Source of the DNA: Candidatus Helarchaeota archaeon | GTDB taxonomy: Archaea; Asgardarchaeota; Lokiarchaeia; Helarchaeales; RDOG01 | Length of the DNA stretch: 22,205 nt | Direction: 5' to 3' | Assembly: GCA_029838215.1 (NCBI GenBank) | Contig: JALGVI010000049.1 | Span: 1 to 22,205, forward strand | Part shown: in pieces, positions 1 through 20,775 of the stretch | Position numbering within the stretch: the first letter of the stretch is position 1 | How the letters are laid out: the number at the start of each line of letters is the position of its first letter | Program-made: the position numbers and the translations under genes | Notes under the pieces: model-generated | The model's database searches: none | The model's input: only the letters and a program-made list of their open reading frames with translations | Told to the model about the DNA's origin: nothing

Positions 1-38
1 TCTTCAGTTACCCCCACGAAGTTATCTTCGTTAGGCAT
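1..38 (-). CDS. 5' end of a gene running off the left edge (MPNEDNFVGVTE...), product unknown
   Basis: ATG at 38-36 on the minus strand, open frame to the window edge, preceded by an AT-rich intergenic region. Only 12 codons are visible. Confidence 0.35.
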   Translation of the reverse strand, partial: MPNEDNFVGVTE

Positions 39-189
39 TAGTTTAATTATATATGAAATTTGAAATAAAAAAAAATCGGTTTTTTCGAGTTTTTTATCGC
101 GAAAAAAAAAGAAATTTCAAGCCGATTGCAGGATTCTGGGCAAAGAAATTCGGTAATATTTAGATGTTCTAAAAAAGTGAGTTAATTCT

Positions 190-2356: not shown

Positions 2357-3676
2357 TCACCCGATGACTTTTTCCCATTTCTTCAGTTTCAATACTTTCG
2401 ATAACGTGGAGCCACGTTTGATCTCTTCCCGAACGCGATTTTCATTTTCAAGCACCATCGCAGCCCGGTTGGCGATCTCTTGAGCTTGCTCCTTAGGAAT
2501 CACGATGACCCCACAATCATCCCCAACGACCCAGTCTCCAGGGCTTACCTTCAATCCTCCACACGTTATTTCGATATTAACTTCACCAAATCCTTTTGGT
2601 TCCCCTGCATTAGATTTGACATGCCGGCTGAAAGCCGGAAATTTCATCTCTCGAATATCATCAACATCACGAATTGCACCATCTATGACGACTCCTGTAA
2701 CACCTTTTGTCTTGCAGGACCAACTTGCCAACTCGCCCCAAACAGCAATGTCTCCGCCCGATTCATCTATAACGATGACGTTTCCTTTTTCTGCTAAATC
2801 TATAGACTCAACAGGTTTTGACCAATCACCATTATAACACCGCACGGTTATGGCACGACCCACGAGCTTAGAACCTTCCCACACGGGACGAATGCCTTCC
2901 ATGCACGGAGCGCGATGCATTGCATCACTTATGTTTGGCGTGCTTACCATTGAGAAGACGCGGAACAATTCGTCTTCACCGTATTTCCTCATCAATTTCG
3001 ACTTGATGGGTTTTCCTGTTTTCATCGTTTCCTTGAGAGCACGAGTTGCTTCTTCACAATTCTCCGCAGCCGTGATTGCATGCCCAACAATGAGAATATC
3101 GGCTCCTGCTTCGATCCCGAGCGGTGCGGTCTCCGTGTTTATTCCGCCTGCCATCGCTATCTCAGCATTCACGACGACTTCAGAGATTTGCTTGGTAATT
3201 TCGATGGGATTCATGCCCTTGACTTGTTGATCGATTCCCACGTGAATGCAAATGATATCAACACCCATTCGTTCCAGGGCAACGGCACGCTCGATAAAAT
3301 CGGAAACGTTTATCAAATCAACCATGATGCGGGCACCATACTGCTTGCCAGCTTTCAGGGCTTCGAGAATCGTTGAATTATCACTCACGCCCAAAATAAT
3401 GACGATATCCGCACCGCTTTTTGCCGCCATCTCGACTTCTATGCCACCGACATCCATTGTTTTCAAGTCTGCAACAATCACTTTGTTTGGAAATTCCTTC
3501 TTTAATGTACGAACTGCATTCATGCCTTCGCTTTTAATGAGAGGCGTGCCAACCTCGATCCAATCCACACCGCCAGCTACCGCCTCACGGGCGATTTGCA
3601 CGGCACGATCGAGGTTCATCAAGTCTAAAGCAACTTGTAACTTGGCTTCATTCATGTTTATTTTTTCGTCGCTCAT
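2357..3676 (-). CDS. hxlA: 3-hexulose-6-phosphate synthase fused to a C-terminal RraA/HMG-aldolase-like domain
   Basis: HPS barrel motifs LQVALD, IEVGTPLIKSEG, ADLKTMDVG, HVGIDQQ, AGGIN. RraA-like motifs STPNISDAM, GRAITVR, VWGEL, DGAIRDVDDI, PGDWVVGDDCGV. I prefer the ATG at 3676 (upstream GAAGGA) over the track's TTG at 3715. Confidence 0.88.
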   Translation of the reverse strand: MSDEKINMNEAKLQVALDLMNLDRAVQIAREAVAGGVDWIEVGTPLIKSEGMNAVRTLKKEFPNKVIVADLKTMDVGGIEVEMAAKSGADIVIILGVSDNSTILEALKAGKQYGARIMVDLINVSDFIERAVALERMGVDIICIHVGIDQQVKGMNPIEITKQISEVVVNAEIAMAGGINTETAPLGIEAGADILIVGHAITAAENCEEATRALKETMKTGKPIKSKLMRKYGEDELFRVFSMVSTPNISDAMHRAPCMEGIRPVWEGSKLVGRAITVRCYNGDWSKPVESIDLAEKGNVIVIDESGGDIAVWGELASWSCKTKGVTGVVIDGAIRDVDDIREMKFPAFSRHVKSNAGEPKGFGEVNIEITCGGLKVSPGDWVVGDDCGVIVIPKEQAQEIANRAAMVLENENRVREEIKRGSTLSKVLKLKKWEKVIG

Positions 3677-4106
3677 GATGGATCCTTCGTCAATTTCATA
3701 TCTACTTTTAGACAATAAACAAACGGTATAAAAAAATTTTGAAATTTCTACATAATTGAACTAGTTTCTATATAGGAATTTATCTTCTATATATTTTCTA
3801 GAAGAAATCTATAGACAAAAAATGATCATATCTACTAACAGGATCAATCTTTTTCTAATCAAGAATTAAAATACGTTCCAAAATAGAATGAAAAAATAAG
3901 AAATAAAAACGAAAACAACCAATTATCAAGAAAAAATTAGGCATTAAGAACACAATTCACTCAATTTTTAGAACGATTATGAGCATGTCTATCTATTTCA
4001 CCAATGAGAACAAAATCCCGCCTATTTCCATTTTCAGTTCTCTTAGAGGCTAACCGAGAAGACACCTTTTTATAATCTGTCTGAAGACAAGTTTTCATCG
4101 CCGTTT

Positions 4107-9162: not shown

Positions 9163-10824
9163 TCACGGTAGGGGAGGGTCAATTTCGAGGTCTTTCGGAT
9201 ATCGAACCAAATAACGGTATTTTATCTTCATTTCTTCAGATGGCTTTAATTCTAGATCCCATGTAGCAATTCCCAAATCGAATTTCGTTGGCTTGACTGA
9301 AAAATAGTCTTCAACATGTTTCAAGGTCGGTTCTACTTCAATATCAGCAGATTTACTGTGTGGAATGCGATCTATCAAGGTCAATTTTGTTTCTTTCTTG
9401 CGATAATTGTTGATCTTGATTTCATATACATATTCATTTTCTAATTTACCCTTGGTAATGCCTTTTTTGCCGATTTCTCGCTTGGTTAATTTTCTTTCGA
9501 CTTTCATTTCATAAGATAATCGCGTCCCGATCTTGAATTCTTCACTTGGAGATATCACTTTGATGTATGTCTCGCCCACGAAGTCTCCATCGACATAGCA
9601 CTTGACTTTTCCAGGTAAAAGGGTTAAATCACCGTTTTTGATTTTCTCTTGGGCAATTAATTGTTGATCTAGCGAACTCCAATAGAATAGACGGGACGAA
9701 CTTGCCTCGAAATCTTGGAGCAGCACGGGATGTGGATTTCCATCTGCCTTTATCTCCATCTTCTTTGGAATTTTAAAATTTTGAACGCCAAAAGAACTTT
9801 CAGATATGGAGGCGGTTTCGATAGCCATTTCAACAGCAGCGGGTTCGGCAGGGGGACTTTTAGCCATGTAATCGCGGTCCATTGCTAATTCTTCTTCATA
9901 TTCAGCAAATTCCATTTTGTCTTTCGCCTTTCTTTTCTTCATTAAAGAAACACTCTTTGCACGTATCATCGGTGGTTGAGGTGGCGGAGCATAGACGCGT
10001 TCGGAAATATACCACGGATATGGCTCGGTAATGGAAACAGGTTTGAAAGTAGCCGTGGATATTTCCAAGTTCACGTCATTCCAATCTTCAAGAGTCCTGT
10101 TGACGACATTCGCCATGTATCCGATTCGTGTTTCTTCTTCGGTTATCTGCACGTCATAGAATGGAGTCCACGATGCGTTCTTTATTTGGTAAGAAACTTG
10201 TAATTCAAAAACACCGGCACCACTTGATTCAATTGTCACGATAACGGAATAATTTTCTTCAACCCTTCGTTGCTCATCCCCTAACTTGCGAAGTTCTTGG
10301 TTCACTTTTTCAATGTCGATTACATTCTTTTCTAACTTGTCATCGATGTCATGAATGGTGGCTTGAAGTTCCGTGATTTTTTCTTCGCTCAAAGCATGAA
10401 GATCTTTCAAATTTTGGATGGAAGACTCCCCTGCAGCAAAAAACTTGGGAAATTCAGCATTGAAATTGTTGGTGATTTGATTATAATCTTCAATTCTTTT
10501 CTTATGACGATTTTTTTCCGATATAAGTTTTTTCCGTGCTTTTTGAAGATTTTTCATCGTTTCGCGTAATTCATCCAGTTTTTCATGTCCAGTTTTTTCA
10601 ACATAATTGTAATTAACTTCCACGTCTACCAACGTGGCGTTAAAACCTTTTCCAGATCCCTTTACGCGGACACTATCTTTATCAAGAAATTTTGAGATTT
10701 TTTCGACTTTAATCTCATTAAGTCCTTTTTCTAAATTGATTTCACCTGAACGCGTGACACGAGCACCGTCCAGAAAAACGGTAACGTCAGCGATGTCCGT
10801 TTCTACAACTTTGTTTTCGCTCAT
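9163..10824 (-). CDS. DUF4140/DUF4139 domain protein (MuiA-like, TIGR02231-type conserved hypothetical)
   Basis: N-term IADVTVFLDGARVTR...LDKDSVRV, long coiled coil, VSYQIKNASWTPFYD, VVNRTLEDWNDVNLEIST, LLPGKVKCYVDGDFVGET, C-term YEIKINNY...LIDRIPHS...WDLELKP. ATG at 10824 preferred over 10899. Confidence 0.85.
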   Translation of the reverse strand: MSENKVVETDIADVTVFLDGARVTRSGEINLEKGLNEIKVEKISKFLDKDSVRVKGSGKGFNATLVDVEVNYNYVEKTGHEKLDELRETMKNLQKARKKLISEKNRHKKRIEDYNQITNNFNAEFPKFFAAGESSIQNLKDLHALSEEKITELQATIHDIDDKLEKNVIDIEKVNQELRKLGDEQRRVEENYSVIVTIESSGAGVFELQVSYQIKNASWTPFYDVQITEEETRIGYMANVVNRTLEDWNDVNLEISTATFKPVSITEPYPWYISERVYAPPPQPPMIRAKSVSLMKKRKAKDKMEFAEYEEELAMDRDYMAKSPPAEPAAVEMAIETASISESSFGVQNFKIPKKMEIKADGNPHPVLLQDFEASSSRLFYWSSLDQQLIAQEKIKNGDLTLLPGKVKCYVDGDFVGETYIKVISPSEEFKIGTRLSYEMKVERKLTKREIGKKGITKGKLENEYVYEIKINNYRKKETKLTLIDRIPHSKSADIEVEPTLKHVEDYFSVKPTKFDLGIATWDLELKPSEEMKIKYRYLVRYPKDLEIDPPLP

Positions 10825-10958
10825 TTTTTCCACATCATAATTTTTAATTTTATAGAACTGAAAACCGGCTCGTTCCTCTTTACAATAAAAAGAAATCATT
10901 CCTATTCGTTTTTAATCTTCAGATGGAAGTTATACAAGTAATAATCAAATAAAAATTT

Positions 10959-12809
10959 TTAGATTAAAGCAGGGGGGTTTTTGAGATCAAGCTTCTCTTT
11001 AATGGAATATTTTGGAACGATACGCACCGTTTTAAATAAGCCAGAAATGTTTTTACCTTCGGTTATAAACTTGAAATCAATTTTATTTTTATCTGTTGTT
11101 AGAAATTTGGTGATTTCCACGCGATCTGATTCCCAGCAGACCGACTGGACGGGCTTGTCGTTTACAGAGATTTCCATGGCAGAAGTTAATCCATTGAAAT
11201 CTAAAAAGAAGCGATAATGATCATTTGAAAGTGGAATTTCAATTGAATTTGATGCGATATAGATGTGATTATTTAATTTCTTTGTTTTTTTTCGGGATTT
11301 GCTTAATTTTTGAGATGAAGGTCGGATTAACCATTTATTTAAAAAATCTAACGGTTGAATCATTTCATTTTTCTTAAAGTGATAATATTTTTCATTTATT
11401 CCGATAAAGACATCGGGCATTGATGAATATCCAATGAGATCTCCTGTTTTCGAGTTAAAATCTTCAACGATCATGTTGGTTTTCGTGATGTGAAGTGAAG
11501 GCACCTCTGGAATGAGTTGTATCATGCGAAATTCGTGAGGCAAGAACTCCATTGAAAAAGAAGTCTTTCCACTCAATTCTGAAAAAACCTTGAATTGTTG
11601 AATGAGCCCATCTTGAACTCCCCAATTGAGAAGATTGCCAACGCCATCCAAATTGACTTTAATGTCATTAGTTTTATTCGTCCCATTTATTAAAATGACG
11701 AATGTAGATGACCCTAATGAGAAAATATAATTTTTAAAATGTCGCTTGATGCGAACGAGCTCATTAATTTTTATTGCGGGATCGTGAAATCGATTTAATA
11801 AATCTTCAATGTAAATCTCGGCTTTGACTTCAGAAGATATTTCATATGGAACAAAGAAGAACAGCTTGTCTTGCGTGTCAAAATGAGCACTGGGGCTTCT
11901 GTAACGATAGAATAAGTCTCCGAAAAATTCGTGCCTCATTTTTGCGATGTACCTTCGTTGCATCCTTCGTCCTCGCTTGAGCGGAAAAACCGCAAACACG
12001 AAAATGCCATTTTCGGTTATTGTTTTCAAAACATTTAGCAATTCTTCGGATTGCTTGAAATGCGATAATAGGATGAGAGCATCGAGTTTTTGACCGTTAT
12101 ATAGCAACCCAGATTCATCGAACTTCGGGGTCGATTTCAACAAATCGGCTTCGGGGATGAATTCATGATCGAATTGCAAATGAAATAATGTTCTCGAAAC
12201 GGTCAATACTTCCGAAGTGATATCCCGAATTTTGGTTTTGGGATCAATTTCAGATCTCTTGACAATGTCAGGAACAACAAATCCAATCCGTTTCATTCTT
12301 TTTGGTTGCAAGGAAAAAAATAAACCCAATCTCGAAAACAATTCAGTGAATCGAGGATATTGCCGAGTGCTTGACAATTGTTCGAATACAGAAAGATCGA
12401 TACAATAGTCTTTTAAAGTGAGAAAAGTGCCAAACGCCTTATCATCAAATTCCAACTTCGAGTTCATGAAATACTCGGAAAGTGCCACAAAATCGGTCAT
12501 TAAAATGTAAGGATAAGAATTTTTGGAATTTTTGGTTGCAAGCCATGTCAGCTTTTCAAGGAGAGCGGCCGCGTCTTTGGTTTTTGAAAGTGGAATGTCA
12601 TGCACGAATATTGGTGCGGGTTTCGCCCCTTTTTTTAAGGAGGAATATTTAGATTTCAGGGTCTTTAGCGGTTGAGAAAAATCCAAGAATCGCGGTTTCA
12701 ACTCGGAAGAAAACTCTGAAATATTCACGAACTCTTGTCGAAGCTTGTCTAATTCTGTTTGCGATATTTTTCTCACCAAAACAGATATTTTAATTTTTAT
12801 ACATAACAA
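10959..12809 (-). CDS. Hypothetical protein resembling the non-catalytic C-terminal two-thirds of GH106/GH2-type glycoside hydrolases
   Basis: Middle segment LFHLQFDHEFIPEADLL...LLYNGQKLDALIL resembles the GATase-like domain. C-terminal FLDFNGLTSAMEISVNDKPV...W...VEITKFL...N...SGLFKTVRI resembles the galactose-binding jelly-roll. Recognised by pattern only; start codon uncertain. Confidence 0.6.
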   Translation of the reverse strand: MLCIKIKISVLVRKISQTELDKLRQEFVNISEFSSELKPRFLDFSQPLKTLKSKYSSLKKGAKPAPIFVHDIPLSKTKDAAALLEKLTWLATKNSKNSYPYILMTDFVALSEYFMNSKLEFDDKAFGTFLTLKDYCIDLSVFEQLSSTRQYPRFTELFSRLGLFFSLQPKRMKRIGFVVPDIVKRSEIDPKTKIRDITSEVLTVSRTLFHLQFDHEFIPEADLLKSTPKFDESGLLYNGQKLDALILLSHFKQSEELLNVLKTITENGIFVFAVFPLKRGRRMQRRYIAKMRHEFFGDLFYRYRSPSAHFDTQDKLFFFVPYEISSEVKAEIYIEDLLNRFHDPAIKINELVRIKRHFKNYIFSLGSSTFVILINGTNKTNDIKVNLDGVGNLLNWGVQDGLIQQFKVFSELSGKTSFSMEFLPHEFRMIQLIPEVPSLHITKTNMIVEDFNSKTGDLIGYSSMPDVFIGINEKYYHFKKNEMIQPLDFLNKWLIRPSSQKLSKSRKKTKKLNNHIYIASNSIEIPLSNDHYRFFLDFNGLTSAMEISVNDKPVQSVCWESDRVEITKFLTTDKNKIDFKFITEGKNISGLFKTVRIVPKYSIKEKLDLKNPPALI

Positions 12810-13314: not shown

Positions 13315-14220
13315 TTACAGGTGCTTATTTAACCATGAAATTATTTGAGAAAGCAGCTCCGTTTCTTTTTTCGTAAAAACGTGACCGCCTTTTTCAAATA
13401 AGATGTACTGATCTGGAGTGAGGTTGAAGAGCCGAACGTTTGCATGAAATTGTTGAACTCGCACGATGGTATCATCCTTGCAATGAGCGAGAAATACTTT
13501 TGCATTGACGGATTTTCCTTTTAATTGCCTCGCAGGAGAAATTAAATCATTTTCTGAATCCGTAAAATTCGCTCCTTTATATAAATGAAGGAGATGCTTG
13601 TAAACCCACCGCCATGCAGAATGCATCATCTTGATTCCTTGTTGAATGTCATTCATTGCAGCCGTGGCAATAACGACCTTGACTAAAGGATGTGTTGTTG
13701 CCCTGGCTAAAGCGAGCGTCCCTCCCATGGATTGCCCGATCACGGCAATGCGGTTTGCATCAACGTCATGTAATTGCTCTAAATATTTTATAACTTCATC
13801 AAGATCTGAATAAATATGCTTGAACTTGTCGGGATCTTTAAGATTCGGACCGCCCTTGATGCGAGATGAGCCGTGTGCATATTGATCATAACCGAAGACC
13901 AAATATCCCTGCAAGCATAAAGCATTGATTAAATATGCGAAATCTCGCCGTGCCTCGTTTACGTACCCGTGTAACAAAAGTACCGTTGGTGCGGGTTTCT
14001 CCAAATCCTTCAGATTGTAGCGATATGCCGCTAGTTTTTGGTCTCGAGAATGAATCGGAATGAAAAATTTGGATTCTTCGATTTTTTCAGGGATGGGAGC
14101 AAATTTAAATCGTGATGCCTGCGAAAAGAATCGCACGATATAGCCCGTGATGACGACAATAGTAATGAAAAGGATCAGATATGACAAGGAATGACCAAGG
14201 ACAAAGGCAAGATTTGACAT
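13315..14220 (-). CDS. Alpha/beta hydrolase with N-terminal membrane anchor
   Basis: Hydrophobic N-terminus (LSYLILFITIVVITGYIV), LLHGY oxyanion motif, YDQYAHGSS, nucleophile GQSMGG, HCKDDTIV (Asp), GGHVF (His). ATG at 14220 follows GGTGG. Confidence 0.87.
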   Translation of the reverse strand: MSNLAFVLGHSLSYLILFITIVVITGYIVRFFSQASRFKFAPIPEKIEESKFFIPIHSRDQKLAAYRYNLKDLEKPAPTVLLLHGYVNEARRDFAYLINALCLQGYLVFGYDQYAHGSSRIKGGPNLKDPDKFKHIYSDLDEVIKYLEQLHDVDANRIAVIGQSMGGTLALARATTHPLVKVVIATAAMNDIQQGIKMMHSAWRWVYKHLLHLYKGANFTDSENDLISPARQLKGKSVNAKVFLAHCKDDTIVRVQQFHANVRLFNLTPDQYILFEKGGHVFTKKETELLSQIISWLNKHL

Positions 14221-14399
14221 GAAACCACCAAAATTTAATTCGCAATACATTTGAAAAATACGAGTTAAAGAATATTACTCCGTCAAAAAACCTTAAAAGT
14301 CAGTACAGGAATACTTAAAACAAGTTAATAACATCATGATTTTCACTACTGCTTCCGTGTTTTTATTCTCGACTTGCGAATGAGAGAGTTTGGACAATT

Positions 14400-16379
14400 T
14401 TGGAAAAAGAATTACATAAAAAGGTCATTGAAAGCCTGAATGATATTGAAGGAAAGGTCGCAAGACAGAAAGCATTACAATTTATAAGAGATAAACAAGA
14501 GGTGCTCAAGGACAACTCGGATTTAATGCATCTTAAATTTACGTTGAAAAGCCTTGAGAAGAAAAATCTTTTTAATTGGAAGAAATTAATTGCTAGTTCT
14601 GTAAATAACTTGAAGGCTAATGGTTGCTACGTATATTTTGCTCAAGATGGAAAAAAAGCCTTTAATTACTTGAAAAAGATTATTCCCGGAAATCTGGTCG
14701 TCAAATCCAAGACAAACACGGGGAAAGAAATTAACCTCGTCAAGAATTTAGAAAGAATGGGATTTGAAGTAATAGAAACGGATTTAGGGGATCGCATCGT
14801 CCAGTTGGATGGTTCTGAGCCATCTCACCCTCTCGTGCCTGCGCTCCACATCCCTAGATCCAGAATAATAACGTTATTTGACACCGAAGGAAAATCTTCG
14901 GAAGATTTGACTGCAAGAGAAATCGTGGATTTGGCAAGAGAGCAGATTCGATCGAAGATACTGGAATCAGAAGTTGGAATCACAGGTGCCAATGCGCTCA
15001 CGGCAGATGAGGGTCTAATCTGCTTGATCGAAAATGAAGGAAACCAACGGCTCATCACCAGCTTACCGAAAAAACACGTCGTGATCACGGGCATTGACAA
15101 GATCGTGGAAAATATTTCGGAAGCCACGCTAATTGCAAAGGTTGCAGCGTTGTTTGGTTTGGGCGAAAAAACCGCGGGATACATATCATTCCTGAAAGGT
15201 CCATCTCGAACGGGTGACTTAGGATTTGAAATTATTGAAGGAATGCACGGTCCAGAAGAGGTTCACGTTATCATATTGGACAATAAAAGATCAGACATTC
15301 TTGAATCATCATACAGTGAAATTCTATTTTGCATAAGTTGCGGAGGTTGCGTGAACTATTGCCCAGTATACGAGCAAGTGGGAGGAATTTTTGGTTCGGG
15401 AGGAGGCGGTCGTGGAGCAGTCTTTATTGGTCTAACCAGAGGACTTCGGGATGGATACTTGGCAGGTCTTGATTTATGTACGGAATGCGGGGAATGCGTT
15501 CAATCATGCCCAACGTCAATTGATGTCCCAAACTTGATAATAAAAATGAGAAAAGAAGCACGAGAAAAGAAATTGACAATAAAACACCATGATGATATCA
15601 GAAATCAAATTATTAATGAAGGAAATCCTTTTGATAAAAAGGATCTTCGCTCTCAATGGTTCAAAAAGCAGAAAATCCACGTCGATCAAGACGCAAAACG
15701 ATTATTTTATGTTGGTTGCATGGCTTCATACAAGATCCCTGACCAAGCAATCCACGCAATGAAGCTAATGAACAAGTTGAACATCAGCTTCAATTACCTG
15801 TTTAATGAAGAGCCGTGCTGCGGAGGAATATTAAAGAGAACGGGTTACGTGCCCGAATTTGAAAATCAAAAAGCAAAAGTAAGGGATATTCTCAAGCAAT
15901 ATTCTGAAATAATTGTTATTTGTCCCGGGTGTTATAGCACCTTTCACTCATTTTACAATGATTTCTTTGAAATAAAAGGAATCCGAGTCAAGCATCTTAC
16001 CGAAATCTTACCACAATACATACAGCACTTTGAACACGGAAAAGAAACTCTAACCTATCACGACCCTTGCCACTTGGGAAGACACGGCAGGGTTTATGAT
16101 AGCCCACGACAGGTCTTGAATAAGGTCGGAAATCTTGTTGAAATGAGATTTAATAAGGAGCGTTCCTATTGCTGTGGAGCAGGCGGAGGTTGCGTGTCCG
16201 CATTTCCAGAAGTAACCAAGCAAATTTGTAAAACGCGTCTCAGCCAAGCACACGAAACAAATGCAAATTATTTGATCAATACATGTCCATTTTGTGAGTA
16301 TAATTTCAAAGAAACAAACTCAAGCAGGATAAAAATAACTTCACTTCAAAAATACCTGTCTACAAAATGCCTGAAATGA
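14400..16379 (+). CDS. LutB-like LUD/4Fe-4S protein fused to two CCG (LutA/GlcF/HdrD-like) domains; putative Fe-S lactate-type dehydrogenase
   Basis: VVKSKTNTGKEI, ETDLGDRIVQL, PSHPLVPALH, GITGAN, ENEGN, GIDKIV, GPSRTGD, HGPEEVHVIILDN. Fe-S motifs CISCGGCVNYCPVY and CTECGECVQSCP. CCG motifs GCMAS...CCGG...CPGC and YHDPCHLGR...CCGAGG...CPFC. Confidence 0.88.
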   Translation: MEKELHKKVIESLNDIEGKVARQKALQFIRDKQEVLKDNSDLMHLKFTLKSLEKKNLFNWKKLIASSVNNLKANGCYVYFAQDGKKAFNYLKKIIPGNLVVKSKTNTGKEINLVKNLERMGFEVIETDLGDRIVQLDGSEPSHPLVPALHIPRSRIITLFDTEGKSSEDLTAREIVDLAREQIRSKILESEVGITGANALTADEGLICLIENEGNQRLITSLPKKHVVITGIDKIVENISEATLIAKVAALFGLGEKTAGYISFLKGPSRTGDLGFEIIEGMHGPEEVHVIILDNKRSDILESSYSEILFCISCGGCVNYCPVYEQVGGIFGSGGGGRGAVFIGLTRGLRDGYLAGLDLCTECGECVQSCPTSIDVPNLIIKMRKEAREKKLTIKHHDDIRNQIINEGNPFDKKDLRSQWFKKQKIHVDQDAKRLFYVGCMASYKIPDQAIHAMKLMNKLNISFNYLFNEEPCCGGILKRTGYVPEFENQKAKVRDILKQYSEIIVICPGCYSTFHSFYNDFFEIKGIRVKHLTEILPQYIQHFEHGKETLTYHDPCHLGRHGRVYDSPRQVLNKVGNLVEMRFNKERSYCCGAGGGCVSAFPEVTKQICKTRLSQAHETNANYLINTCPFCEYNFKETNSSRIKITSLQKYLSTKCLK

Positions 16380-16404
16380 TGATTTGGGACTTAAACCTTG
16401 ATAA

Positions 16405-16428
16405 GAAAAATGAAAAAATAAAAAAATT
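16405..16428 (-). terminator. Putative oligo(T) terminator of the GTPase-longin operon
   Basis: Plus strand A-tracts (aaaaatgaaaaaataaaaaaa) directly follow the 16429 stop codon, giving T-runs on the coding strand. Confidence 0.4.
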
Positions 16429-17373
16429 CTATTCAGGGTCTTTGACTTCTCTTTTAACCAGGCCCTTCAGTGCTTCATTGGCATCAGCAGTTGCTTTCAT
16501 GTAGAGCATCAGGGCCTTGACTTTTGCCAAATATTCCTTTTTCTTGATTTCATAATAATCTCGGGTCGTATCAAATTTCGTGAGCTCCGTTGCCACCTGC
16601 GCAGCACGCTCAAAATGCATTGCTGTTTCGTTGATCAAGTTTTTCTTCAGTGCTTTTATTGCTTTTTCTTCCAGTGCCATTACTTCATCCTGCATTTTCG
16701 GTATCTTGCGAAACATCTGTGATTTATTTGAGAATTTGGCAAAAAATTCTTCTTCCTTGATCTCTTTAAATAACTCCGCGGCTCTCTGATAATATTCTGC
16801 CGCTTTCGAGTGGTCTTTAGTTTTTAATGCATTCTCTGCCTGTTTCAGGGATTCCGCCAGTTTAAAAGGCACTTCATCGGCTTTCTTGAGGAGAGATTGT
16901 GCCTCTTCAAATTTTTTCATGTCCAAGAGTGTTTTTGCACGTTCACTAATCTGGTCGCGAATCTGTGAAGCAGAAAAGGTGAGACCTGAATCAGAAATGA
17001 TTTCCGTTTCATAAATATCTTTGATCAATTCAATCAATTTGGGATTGTCTATGCTATCCTTGATTTGCGGTTCTAATTTCCGTAAAATGTAGAAGAAATC
17101 ACTTGCCGCCTCGGTCACGTTTAACAATAAAAGAAGAATGATCCGCCTGACGGTGTTCTTTTGCTTGAACTGGAAATAATAAGAACTGACATTCGCATCT
17201 TCAACCTGAATTGAAATTTCACCTTCAGGAGGTTCCTTTGCAGTATGCATCATGAATGCTTGCATTGGCAAATCAGAACTGATTTCCAACGTTTCGGGAT
17301 ATTTTAATTTGATCACGGGACCAGTCATCTTGTCCCAATCTATAATAACCATTCCACGTGGCATGTTACTCAC
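16429..17373 (-). CDS. uDENN/longin-like N-terminal domain plus alpha-helical (TPR/MIT/SNAP-like) repeats
   Basis: The N-terminal GMVIIDWDKMTGPVIKLKYP matches the 'hydrophobic-F/W-D-x3-G-P-x5-P' start of uDENN/NPRL2-type longins. The C-terminal half has three A-x3-L...A-x3-Y/F-x2-AA helical units. The GTG start overlaps the GTPase stop (GTGA). Confidence 0.7.
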   Translation of the reverse strand: MSNMPRGMVIIDWDKMTGPVIKLKYPETLEISSDLPMQAFMMHTAKEPPEGEISIQVEDANVSSYYFQFKQKNTVRRIILLLLLNVTEAASDFFYILRKLEPQIKDSIDNPKLIELIKDIYETEIISDSGLTFSASQIRDQISERAKTLLDMKKFEEAQSLLKKADEVPFKLAESLKQAENALKTKDHSKAAEYYQRAAELFKEIKEEEFFAKFSNKSQMFRKIPKMQDEVMALEEKAIKALKKNLINETAMHFERAAQVATELTKFDTTRDYYEIKKKEYLAKVKALMLYMKATADANEALKGLVKREVKDPE

Positions 17374-17912
17374 TTTTTCTTAATTTTTTCAAGAATTTTC
17401 TGAACGATTGTCTGGAACATCAAGTCGACATTCTGTCCGGTCTTTGCAGAAGTCTCCACATAATCCAAGCTCATTTTTTTAGCGTACTTTTCGGCTTCTT
17501 CTTTAGTAACTTCAAGATTGGATTCAAGATCCACTTTATTTCCCACTAAAAGACCGATCTTGACCTTGGATTTATTCATTTTCTGATAATCTTTATTCCA
17601 CGTTAAAGAGTTTACAAGAGTCTGTTTATTCGTGGTGTCGAATACCAAGATATATCCAAAAGCACCTTCATAGAAGATCTTGCGGAATGCTGCAAATTTA
17701 GATTGTCCAGCAATGTCCCAAATGTTTAACTTGATATTTTTATCGCTAAGAGATACAAATTTTTGCGAAACTTGGCAACCTACAGTAGGAATATAGAGCT
17801 GTTCGAACCTCTGCTCGGTATATCTCAGCATTAACGTGGTTTTGCCCACGCTCGGATCGCCAATCACGCATATCTTCCAAGTATAATTCGTCTTTTGTTC
17901 CACGATGATCAC
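17370..17912 (-). CDS. Rab-like small GTPase (Ras superfamily)
   Basis: G1 GDPSVGKTT, G2 YIPTVG, G3 WDIAGQ, G4 NKVD, G5 ETSAK. RabF-like KLNIW, FYEGA, LVFDTT. No C-terminal Cys. Confidence 0.93.
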   Translation of the reverse strand: MIIVEQKTNYTWKICVIGDPSVGKTTLMLRYTEQRFEQLYIPTVGCQVSQKFVSLSDKNIKLNIWDIAGQSKFAAFRKIFYEGAFGYILVFDTTNKQTLVNSLTWNKDYQKMNKSKVKIGLLVGNKVDLESNLEVTKEEAEKYAKKMSLDYVETSAKTGQNVDLMFQTIVQKILEKIKKK

Positions 17913-17956: not shown

Positions 17957-17980
17957 TATAAATAGAATTTCTATTATAAA
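17957..17980. promoter_or_regulatory. Palindrome AATAGAA-T-TTCTATT flanked by TATA-like boxes upstream of the Rab-like GTPase
   Basis: Perfect 7-bp inverted repeat at 17961-17975. TTTATA-type elements on the minus strand lie at both flanks, about 45-70 nt upstream of the GTPase start. Confidence 0.35.
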
Positions 17981-18332: not shown

Positions 18333-18662
18333 TTATTCTTTGGAGTAATACCACACCCAGCGGTTGTCCTTAAAGAAATACCGTTTCTTGTGGTGATATA
18401 TGGCTTCAATTTTTAAAAGCTTGGCTAAATCAATCATATCTTGCAAATTTTCTAACTGAAAATCGCACTTCTGATCGGGACTCCAAAGCATCTTCTTGAC
18501 CTCTATGATTTTAGGGAGTCCTTCTGTAGTCAACCCGGATTCATCCTTTGGTTTTATCTTGTCTTCCTTCTTATCGTTTTTCTTCTCTGTTTCTTCTTCA
18601 ATATCTACTTCAACTTCGTCCTTAGATTCTTTTTTCTTGTCGGTAATTTTTACCACTTCCAT
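18333..18662 (-). CDS. Hypothetical protein: charged low-complexity N-terminus plus ~59-aa domain shared with the downstream gene
   Basis: E/K/D-rich N-terminus, then KIIEVKK...DFQLENLQD...IEAIY...Y...DN...YY. ATG at 18662 preferred over TTG at 18680. Confidence 0.72.
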   Translation of the reverse strand: MEVVKITDKKKESKDEVEVDIEEETEKKNDKKEDKIKPKDESGLTTEGLPKIIEVKKMLWSPDQKCDFQLENLQDMIDLAKLLKIEAIYHHKKRYFFKDNRWVWYYSKE

Positions 18663-18706
18663 TTTTGATTCGGAATTCAATTAAGAATTCAATTTAAATG
18701 AAATAA

Positions 18707-19968: not shown

Positions 19969-20775
19969 TTGTTTCATACGATATATCTAATTAATGAAGC
20001 GGGCATTTGCATCTACGAGCGGCATTATGTCGAAAATAAACTCGATCCCGATTTGGTTACGGGGTTCATGAATGCCGTGGGATCTTTCGCCAAAGAGGCA
20101 TTCTTAAGTGGTCTACAATCAATGGAACTTGAGGACAATAAAAGACTCATCTATGGAATCGACTCAAAGAATCGTCTCCTTGCGGCAGCATTAGCAGATC
20201 AAGTAGATCATCCTAAATTACAGGAAAGAATCCTTCAACAAGTCATTGAAGCTTTTTTACACGATTACGAGCAAACATTAAATGATGTCGTGAAGCCAAA
20301 AGTTTATGAGGGGTTCACGGAAAAACTCGATAAGATCATTAAAAGAAGGGTTCGCAAACGGGGAAAACTTCAATTTGGTCTTGCGTGCGGTCTAAGTCTC
20401 CTTTGTGTCTTTTTACTTGGAGTATTCATGAGTCCATTATTGGATGTTCTGAACAATACTCCTTATAGCATATTGGCAATTTTCATTTTCATCCCTCCCC
20501 CATTGGTTAGCGGTCTTGTTGCGGGAAATCGCAAGAATGGGATTATTGCAAGCACTATAACGCTAATACCATTAATACCACTGTTATTGACTTCAGAGCC
20601 GAGATATTTGGGTCTATTATTTATCACTTTCGTGATAATGTTGCTGATGATCGGAAGTTTATACGTGACTCTCGGCATGCTTACGGGTTTTCTCATCGAG
20701 AGGTTTTATCTTTATCCAATACCTGCAAATCTTGAAAAAAAAGCTGAAAAACATCAGAAAATAAAATCGACCTGA
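19969..20775 (+). CDS. Longin-domain protein with C-terminal ~4-TM membrane domain
   Basis: N-term IYLINEAGICIYERHY...DPDLVTGFMNAVGSFAKE...LQSMEL...LIYG...LAAALAD follows the longin (sedlin/sigma-adaptin/MON1-like) pattern. Hydrophobic segments at about aa 134-158, 165-185, 190-208 and 213-243. TTG start after GGAG. Confidence 0.75.
   Translation: MFHTIYLINEAGICIYERHYVENKLDPDLVTGFMNAVGSFAKEAFLSGLQSMELEDNKRLIYGIDSKNRLLAAALADQVDHPKLQERILQQVIEAFLHDYEQTLNDVVKPKVYEGFTEKLDKIIKRRVRKRGKLQFGLACGLSLLCVFLLGVFMSPLLDVLNNTPYSILAIFIFIPPPLVSGLVAGNRKNGIIASTITLIPLIPLLLTSEPRYLGLLFITFVIMLLMIGSLYVTLGMLTGFLIERFYLYPIPANLEKKAEKHQKIKST

Follow-up and report, generated by a model that had tools for sequence, protein, structure and literature searches.

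Does a small GTPase encoded directly beside a longin protein in an archaeal genome have that protein as its regulator, and if so, in which direction is the switch driven? In Asgard genomes small GTPases number in the dozens and roadblock/longin proteins exceed one hundred, and to our knowledge almost nothing ties a given Asgard switch to a given regulator. According to Tran et al. (PMC10933270), GTPase genes of MK-D1 are generally not in operons with longin genes, which hampers such matching. The question arises at a locus on contig JALGVI010000049.1 (22,205 nucleotides, hereafter the window) of a Helarchaeota-type Asgard archaeon, where a Rab-like GTPase gene and a gene for a longin/helical-repeat protein (hereafter the partner) form a compact unit on the minus strand. 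We find that the pairing is conserved far beyond chance, and the two proteins likely constitute a cognate switch–regulator module. On the motif evidence we favour a GTPase-activating protein (GAP) over a GEF (guanine nucleotide exchange factor) or an effector/adaptor as the role of the partner, at about even confidence.

Conservation of the gene pair

Word-based and exhaustive searches together assembled a partner family of about 80 representatives. At 10 distinct loci with differing flanking genes, a GTPase of the same clade lies directly upstream on the same strand, separated from the partner gene by 0–22 nt in nine loci and by 258 nt in one (L080). In the close branch, a GTPase homologous to that of the window immediately precedes the partner gene on the same strand wherever a contig extends far enough upstream, among otherwise differing neighbours; the contigs concerned derive from Helarchaeota metagenome-assembled genomes (MAGs), one “Lokiarchaeota” MAG and metagenome contigs (L001–L006, L009/L011 and L037, which equals L005). 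P0011, a 25%-identical member, is likewise GTPase-linked, as is L080, which was found from the GTPase side. A narrow-alignment search for related loci returned two genome loci. The survey shows the two-gene module to be conserved, in line with a preliminary description of this DNA, made from the sequence alone, that had proposed a cognate pair. Outside Helarchaeota-type lineages the pair occurs in only a few other Promethearchaeota, and throughout this range it stays intact down to 20–37% protein identity while its flanks reshuffle.

The GTPases show the same association. All 8 then known to be partner-adjacent fell into one 45-member clade (Shimodaira–Hasegawa-like approximate likelihood ratio test, SH-aLRT, 96 in a quick tree), and a ninth clade member, P0096, was later found beside a partner; the clade member P0121 (L081) has no partner alongside. 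Across the ten pairs, the pairwise identities of GTPase and partner co-vary with r = 0.92, a value that 0 of 5000 permutations reach and that indicates joint inheritance without being proof of contact.

The assembly that contains the window (3.6 Mb, 170 contigs, 94% complete) provides a further line of evidence. It holds one full-length copy of the partner gene and seven paralogs of its N-terminal domain with other C-termini, and the Pfam Folliculin model matches three other proteins of the genome. Two fusion proteins of 363 and 348 aa each join an N-terminal Folliculin-Pfam longin to a C-terminal Ras-family GTPase domain; domain fusions are classical evidence that both kinds of domain work together. 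In addition, a paralog of the partner longin with WD-x3-G and R-K is fused to TackOD1 (327 aa in all) and is followed directly by a Ras-family GTPase. The fusions and this second longin/GTPase pair amount to Rosetta-stone evidence from the same genome. Separately, a Ras GTPase carrying a zinc ribbon at its C-terminus was seen to lie before one of the two longin–Ras fusions.

The junction of the two genes was described earlier as a stop/start overlap in the tetranucleotide GTGA (17370–17373). The tetranucleotide is present, but every partner homolog begins with Met-Pro, which corresponds to ATG 17364, the fourth codon of the 314-aa open reading frame (ORF), so the true partner start is most likely this ATG and the junction probably reads TGA, five nucleotides, ATG. 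This spacing is typical of an internal gene in an archaeal operon. A comparison of all ten junctions revealed a purine-rich GGTGA/GGAGG-like motif 5–9 nt before ATG-CC(N), and the GTGAG in the window is predicted to serve as a Shine–Dalgarno-like site; the genes are tightly coupled, probably without overlap. On the minus strand the unit runs from a TATA-like box through the GTPase and the partner to an oligo-T tract. Partner residues are numbered here according to the 314-aa version (ORF 16429–17373, read from GTG 17373). For the GTPase, a second start option at GTG 17903 gives 177 aa, the form on record. A search of sequencing runs found no RNA run; its only finds were two DNA runs, from a sediment and a hydrothermal vent metagenome, that share few words with the locus, and the result is uninformative on expression or habitat.

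The upstream gene encodes a full-length Ras-superfamily domain (Pfam Ras, 7.6e-48) with intact G1–G5 motifs, including the G5 motif SAK, and the switch-I threonine T43. Its best solved relatives are Rab2A, Sec4, Rab14, Rab8A and Thor-Rab (4e-38 to 2e-33), and the top 60 solved-structure matches are all of Rab/Sec4/Ypt type or Thor-Rab (4e-38 to 9e-31). NCBI names the homologs Rab family GTPase, and the earlier assignment as Rab-like stands. By eye, we take KLNIWDIAGQ to resemble RabF2 and ILVFDTT to resemble RabF5, the remaining RabF motifs being partial. The GTPase in the window has a lysine-rich C-terminal tail, and none of the 10 paired GTPases has a cysteine in its last 10 residues, so the protein is termed Rab-like, short of a true Rab as defined by prenylation. 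The catalytic glutamine and all G motifs are retained in every pair, as expected of a GAP substrate.

The longin domain and its motifs

No curated family (Pfam; NCBIfam) matched the partner above threshold. An AlphaFold2 (AF2) model built from an alignment of 44 relatives reached a predicted local distance difference test (pLDDT) score of 93.9, with a short, less confident linker between an N-terminal domain and a set of C-terminal helices. DSSP assigned strands to residues 7–14, 18–25, 52–57, 60–71 and 74–84 of the N-terminal domain and helices to residues 35–44, 90–107 and 113–128, all at pLDDT >90. This is the order of a longin domain with its five-stranded sheet (~120 aa).

Comparison with solved structures led to the same fold. 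Foldseek against the PDB ranked GATOR1/SEAC chains highest, namely those of NPRL2/Npr2 and NPRL3 (E 6.6e-4, rmsd 3.6, 136 columns), followed by a Lokiarchaeal longin, FLCN–FNIP2, DENND10, Fuzzy–Inturned, Lst4, DENND1B and C9orf72–SMCR8. Solved longins reached VIA-align Z scores of 10.7–13 against the model over 108–129 residues, led by the Loki longin 8yqg (Z 13.0), with NPRL3, Lst4, DENND1A, Npr2 and NPRL2 at Z 11–12, DENND1A/B, FLCN and Sec22b also within Z 11–13 and SNARE, sedlin and adaptin longins at Z 10.7–11.1; because many longin classes score this similarly, the fold is secure, and Z by itself does not settle the subclass. In the ESM Atlas, beyond the partner's own archaeal clusters, eukaryotic NPR2, C9orf72, DENND11 and archaeal longin–GTPase fusions were nearest, and the neighbours included a Heimdall cluster partly carrying the Folliculin family. 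A language-model atlas search with the N-terminal domain scored 0.84, below the useful range, its first cluster being 19% NPR2. Profiles of the whole family and of the N-terminal domain, run against PDB sequences, retrieved only TPR chains and a chance histidine-kinase match.

The longin fold had been anticipated in the preliminary description, and the Foldseek ranking, with NPRL2/Npr2 on top and the Asgard longin, FLCN, Lst4, DENND1 and C9orf72 among the next matches, supports it. That description had further called the partner's start uDENN/NPRL2-type. The stretch of sequence on which this was based is present and the fold is nearest NPRL2/NPRL3, but a DENN module was rejected: the cDENN and dDENN lobes are absent, and the C-terminal 180 residues form six TPR/MIT-type helices. 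An MglB/roadblock order (alpha-beta-beta-alpha-beta-beta-beta) was also discarded, as the model opens with two strands and lacks an N-terminal helix.

Two motifs stand out in the longin domain. The first, WD-x3-GP (W13 to P19), is invariant in 6 close partner homologs, and its W, D and G are each at least 90% conserved across 30 N-terminal domains of the wider class, in which the arginines considered below are confined to one branch. A GP motif beside a catalytic arginine is common to C9orf72, SMCR8, FLCN and NPRL2 and occurs in some Asgard longins, and is absent from FNIP2, NPRL3, DENN, TRAPP and adaptin longins (PMC12290439, a longin GAP survey of 2025). The motif is defined there as GP at the end of the beta1–beta2 loop or the start of beta2; in the partner, G18-P19 conforms to this definition of GAP-type longins, with beta2 beginning at residue 18. 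For human C9orf72 the same paper quotes W33-D34...G38-P39, the spacing of WD-x3-GP being identical to that of the partner. The C9orf72 W33G/D34K mutant has no GAP activity left, nor does SMCR8 R147A, and the GTPase sits in a cup formed jointly by the two longin domains (PMC8213707).

The second motif, R76-R77, is invariant in the GTPase-linked subfamily and lost in relatives without a GTPase neighbour. It lies at the start of beta5, which should adjoin the end of beta1 in the longin sheet. The VIA alignment to the NPRL2 chain 9o5d_D (model 3..135 against chain 5..160) has a register of +2, and R76 would fall near NPRL2 residue 78, provided that no indels precede it, a placement read from the register rather than from a residue-level superposition. 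The suggested equivalence with known arginine fingers is drawn from this register together with strand topology. The WD/GP and arginine features, which C9orf72–SMCR8 distributes over two subunits, are united in one chain of the partner, which makes a homodimer plausible; by analogy, the partner may act in this form.

Across the family, the complete motif set tracks GTPase adjacency. All nine members with full WD-x3-GP and RR are GTPase-linked, counting L080, whose RR is followed by H-L and was missed by the pattern. When the degenerate P0011 form (W-D, G-A, Y-R) is admitted, 10 of 10 distinct members have the GTPase directly upstream; the loci being kin, such counts show a pattern rather than amounting to a statistical test. 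The longin–TPR architecture as such is far more widespread: it occurs in 89 of the 301 genomes of the phylum surveyed and almost throughout two families of the same class (66 of 68 and 7 of 7 genomes), usually in 2–3 copies per genome. A broad set of longin + TPR-like proteins of ~300 aa (loci L031–L079) was seen to be without the WD/GP/RR residues. None of the 49 surveyed longin–TPR loci has a GTPase within 1.5–2 kb, and WD, GP and RR are absent from them. Linkage of the whole family to a GTPase is thereby ruled out, and we narrowed the linkage claim to the WD-GP-RR branch.

Direction of regulation and alternatives

The GP, WD and RR features together resemble those that PMC12290439 reports as specific to GAP-type longins and as missing from DENN, TRAPP and adaptin longins, which makes GAP the better guess for the partner. 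The mechanism we propose is as follows. The two genes would form one transcription unit encoding a Rab-like switch and its own regulator. The partner longin, most likely homodimeric, would dock on the GTPase in its GTP-bound form, at the switch face, with the WD-x3-GP turn holding the GTPase and Arg76 or Arg77 entering the nucleotide pocket as an arginine finger beside Gln70 of the GTPase. GTP hydrolysis would be accelerated, the partner thus acting as a GAP of the FLCN/NPRL2/SMCR8–C9orf72 type, and the helical arm would link this activity with a further protein or a particular site. Physical binding, dimerization, the role of the arginine, the direction of regulation and the function of the arm are inferred, and we rate the proposal as a whole, a cognate pair with a GAP of this type and a tethering arm, at just short of an even chance. 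A complex prediction run without controls on two partner copies, the GTPase, GTP and Mg gave ipSAE values of 0.26 and 0.30 against a mark of 0.32 and counts neither way.

The arm itself had been described as ending in three helical repeat units. Repeat units are indeed present and the region is a repeat arm, but the model resolves it into six long helices, with TPR-type matches at residues ~152–203. On sequence its first half is TPR-like, with TPR_2 found in 25 of the 44 family members (best 1.9e-7) and the family profile hitting consensus-TPR chains at 4e-6. In P0002 the TPR_2 score is 18 bits against a cut-off of 27, and the helices are longer than those of canonical TPRs. By shape, an exhaustive VIA search with the arm placed the MIT domain of archaeal Vps4 on top (2w2u; 71 of 74 aa, rmsd 1.3 Å), and MIT domains made up roughly half of the top 27 rows; the Z of 12.3 lies within the chance range of helical bundles and the Pfam MIT model is weak on the partner (E 0.09; cut-off 30 bits) and matches a different segment of the arm, so the resemblance is a lead only. 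MIT membership by sequence was rejected, as Pfam MIT reaches only 15 bits and sequence profiles say TPR, and similarity to SNAP/Sec17 is weak (phmmer E 0.13, rmsd 11 Å). The arm probably binds a further protein, and its MIT-like shape raises the possibility of an ESCRT-III-type ligand. A bolder version of the proposal, in which the partner is a self-contained prokaryotic prototype of the eukaryotic longin GAP complexes, a homodimer offering the C9orf72-like WD-GP surface from one copy and the SMCR8/NPRL2-like arginine finger from the other to a Rab-like client of the same operon while an MIT-like bundle couples the GTPase cycle to ESCRT-III-type proteins, strikes us as improbable.

Several points weigh against a GAP. 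Both its direction and the binding of partner to GTPase are inferred from sequence features, and the equivalence of R76/R77 with NPRL2 R78, FLCN R164 and SMCR8 R147 would hold by position rather than by superposition. VIA-align returns Z 10.7–13 for GAP, DENN, SNARE, sedlin and adaptin longins alike. The Pfam NPR2, Folliculin and C9orf72-like models miss the partner at E <= 1, and at E <= 10 in whole-genome scans, although the blank from the C9orf72 model, which matched nothing, controls included, is uninformative; the N-domain profile finds no solved longin among PDB sequences. The P0011 branch is GTPase-linked and has GA for GP and YR for RR, and a small protein (L013) carries WD-x3-GP without RR or a GTPase neighbour, on a contig of only 2.6 kb. 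Close kinship among the loci inflates every count. Furthermore, MglB acts as a GAP without an arginine finger. Finally, according to PMC10933270, most characterised longin/roadblock regulators are GEFs.

This last point also speaks for the partner being a GEF, as the preliminary description had labelled it: GDP would leave from a nucleotide pocket opened by the longin platform, in the manner of Mon1–Ccz1, TRAPP and DENN. The DENND1A/B uDENN and Fuzzy–Inturned are among the structural matches of the partner longin, and in Liu et al. (bioRxiv 10.1101/2020.10.19.343400) an Asgard operon of roadblock, Rab-like and DENN genes is assigned a predicted GEF function. However, the partner has neither cDENN nor dDENN, the part of DENN proteins that performs exchange, and the GP motif that it carries is absent from DENN, TRAPP and adaptin longins (PMC12290439). 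The invariant RR and the WD fit the GAP set better, and the GEF label is not the best supported one; we consider this role unlikely.

A role as effector or adaptor appears equally unlikely, even with its two variants taken together. Here the GTP-bound GTPase would recruit the partner, whose arm would bring in a third protein, for example one of ESCRT-III type or bearing another peptide motif; in the variant, the partner would keep the GTPase at a site or in a single nucleotide state. Helical repeat of a peptide-binding type makes up over half of the partner, the wider longin–TPR family exists without a linked GTPase, and RomRX proved to be an MglA effector and not a GEF, as PMC13408092 reports. 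Such a role does not account for the invariance of WD-x3-GP and RR being confined to the GTPase-linked branch, and strict one-to-one operons with a switch are rare for effectors.

Least probable of all is that the two genes are mere co-transcribed neighbours without contact, inherited together in one lineage: all pairs come from one order-level group and a few relatives, for which shared ancestry could suffice, and their interaction is so far a prediction, but the pair outlasts both sequence divergence and the reshuffling of its flanks, has operon-like spacing with an internal Shine–Dalgarno-like site, and is paralleled in the same genome by independent longin–GTPase fusions and a second longin/GTPase pair.

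Locus features and comparison with known systems

The features of the pair and of related loci are collected in Table 1.

Table 1. Positions of the paired genes, their domains and motifs, and related loci in the same genome. Positions refer to the window unless a contig is given.
Feature	Position	Strand	Remarks
TATA-like box, TTTATA	17957..17962	(-)	~45 nt upstream of GTPase start codon; candidate promoter, read from sequence
Rab-like GTPase	17370..17912	(-)	180 aa from GTG 17912
GTPase G1, GDPSVGKT	17838-17861	(-)	motif scan
GTPase G3, DIAGQ	17703-17717	(-)	motif scan
GTPase G4, NKVD	17529-17540	(-)	motif scan
Gene junction	17365..17373	(-)	GTPase stop TGA (17370-17372) inside GTGAG, Shine–Dalgarno-like, 5 nt before partner ATG
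Partner protein	16429..17364	(-)	311 aa from ATG 17364
Longin domain, residues 4-128	16990..17364	(-)	beta-beta-alpha-beta-beta-beta-alpha-alpha, DSSP on model
W13-D14-K-M-T-G18-P19 (WD-x3-GP)	17317..17337	(-)	end of beta1, turn, start of beta2
R76-R77	17143..17148	(-)	just ahead of beta5; candidate arginine finger
Helical arm, residues 135-311, six long helices	16441..16971	(-)	AF2; arm alone pLDDT 95.7
TPR-like by sequence, residues ~152-203	16765-16920	(-)	first half of arm
MIT-like three-helix bundle by shape, residues 222-294	16492-16710	(-)	last three helices
Oligo-T tracts directly after partner TAG stop	16400..16428	(-)	candidate archaeal terminator, read from sequence
Two small tandem ORFs, 63 and 115 aa	18126-18317, 18333-18680	(-)	upstream of GTPase
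Longin–Ras fusion proteins, one preceded by a Ras GTPase	G000:C86 (L016 1252-2340); G000:C143 (L015 1264-2307; L015 322-1227)		
Longin–TackOD1 + Ras GTPase pair	G000:C83 (L023 1492-2472 and 2390-2989)		opposite gene order

The genes around the pair are ordinary metabolic genes. The two small ORFs upstream of the GTPase are mutually paralogous (36% identity over 56 aa, E 3e-11), have no Pfam match and are absent beside the pair in related loci; since neither they nor the other neighbours are conserved with the pair, they are not counted in the module. Downstream (13315–16379) lie genes for a LUD/4Fe-4S/CCG lactate-utilisation-type protein, an alpha/beta hydrolase and a GNAT acetyltransferase, a set shared only with the contig of the closest relative (L001 5978–9488). 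A formyltransferase (FTR) gene recurs nearby at L003, L004, L009 and L081, and together with the shared downstream genes it looks like lineage synteny outside the module. About 2 kb from the GTPase lies a 268-aa protein (19969–20775, plus strand) that may be longin/roadblock-like and anchored in the membrane; its C-terminal half is strongly hydrophobic, and its N-terminus weakly matches the first longin domain of FUZ/MON1/HPS1 (E 0.067). Elsewhere on the minus strand, a 452-aa ORF (2357–3715) combines an OMP-decarboxylase/HUMPS-family domain with an RraA-like aldolase domain, and a 578-aa DUF4139/DUF4140 protein (9163–10899) adjoins a 616-aa protein (10959–12809) for which no family match was found.

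Among prokaryotic systems, MglA–MglB likewise places a small GTPase beside a small, dimer-forming regulator of the roadblock/longin superfamily. MglB has the roadblock order of helices and strands and no arginine finger, whereas in the partner the order is that of a longin, and a candidate finger and a long helical arm are present. Compared with DENN-family Rab GEFs, the partner longin resembles the uDENN (DENND1A/B, Z 11.6–11.9), and the cDENN and dDENN lobes are lacking. Residues 222–294 are alike in shape to the MIT domains of Vps4/CdvC, LIP5/Vta1 and calpain-7, although sequence profiles call TPR. The Asgard operon of roadblock (LAMTOR1-like), Rab-like and DENN genes described by Liu et al. 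is likewise a conserved neighbourhood of Rab-like and roadblock/longin genes; the present unit, in contrast, comprises two genes, has no DENN and no LAMTOR-like gene, and is more narrowly distributed.

Similar in kind are the Asgard FLCN/SMCR8-type GP longins (PMC12290439) and the NPRL2-like fusions of Liu et al., which share with the partner the longin domain and the Asgard origin. The GP and arginine of the former are arranged as they appear to be in the partner, and the longins of both papers are, like the partner's, fused to unrelated C-terminal modules. One source of such sequences is a Helarchaeota study whose samples also contain P0008. Those papers give no client GTPase and no genomic context for these longins, whereas here the conserved operon indicates a Rab-like client. 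PMC12290439 leaves open whether ArfR or Rag proteins partner the Asgard GP longins, and for one family the present locus gives a candidate answer to this question of the client. The searchable literature, with subscription papers and the list of 15 Asgard longins outside its scope, yielded no description of the longin–TPR protein or of its operon with a Rab-like GTPase. Asgard NPRL2/FLCN/SMCR8-like longins, their fusions and one operon of Rab-like, roadblock and DENN genes are already known; what the locus suggests as new is the architecture of a predicted GAP-type longin and the assignment of its client through conserved gene order. If the partner were a GEF or an effector, the pair would still be among the few archaeal GTPase–partner assignments backed by genome context. 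The pair is small, soluble and conserved and can be expressed and assayed directly.

If the partner is instead a GAP with an arginine finger, as we favour, its counterparts would be C9orf72–SMCR8(–WDR41), FLCN–FNIP2 and GATOR1 (NPRL2–NPRL3–DEPDC5). These share with it the longin fold with GP at the start of beta2; in C9orf72 WD also stands three residues before GP, as in the partner. At the sheet edge where the partner's arginine probably lies they too have a conserved arginine, and their client is a small Ras-superfamily GTPase with a catalytic glutamine, as is presumed here. There are also clear differences. The partner is matched by none of their sequence models, has a TPR/MIT-like arm in place of the DENN/NPRL2-type C-terminal domain, and has a presumed client that is Rab-like rather than Rag or Arf and is encoded in the same operon. 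If GAP activity with an arginine finger holds, the catalytic mechanism of FLCN, GATOR1 and C9orf72–SMCR8 would predate eukaryotes. C9orf72–SMCR8 splits WD-GP and the arginine over two subunits and the partner holds both in one small polypeptide, and the ancestral form might have been a homodimer acting on a Rab-like protein.

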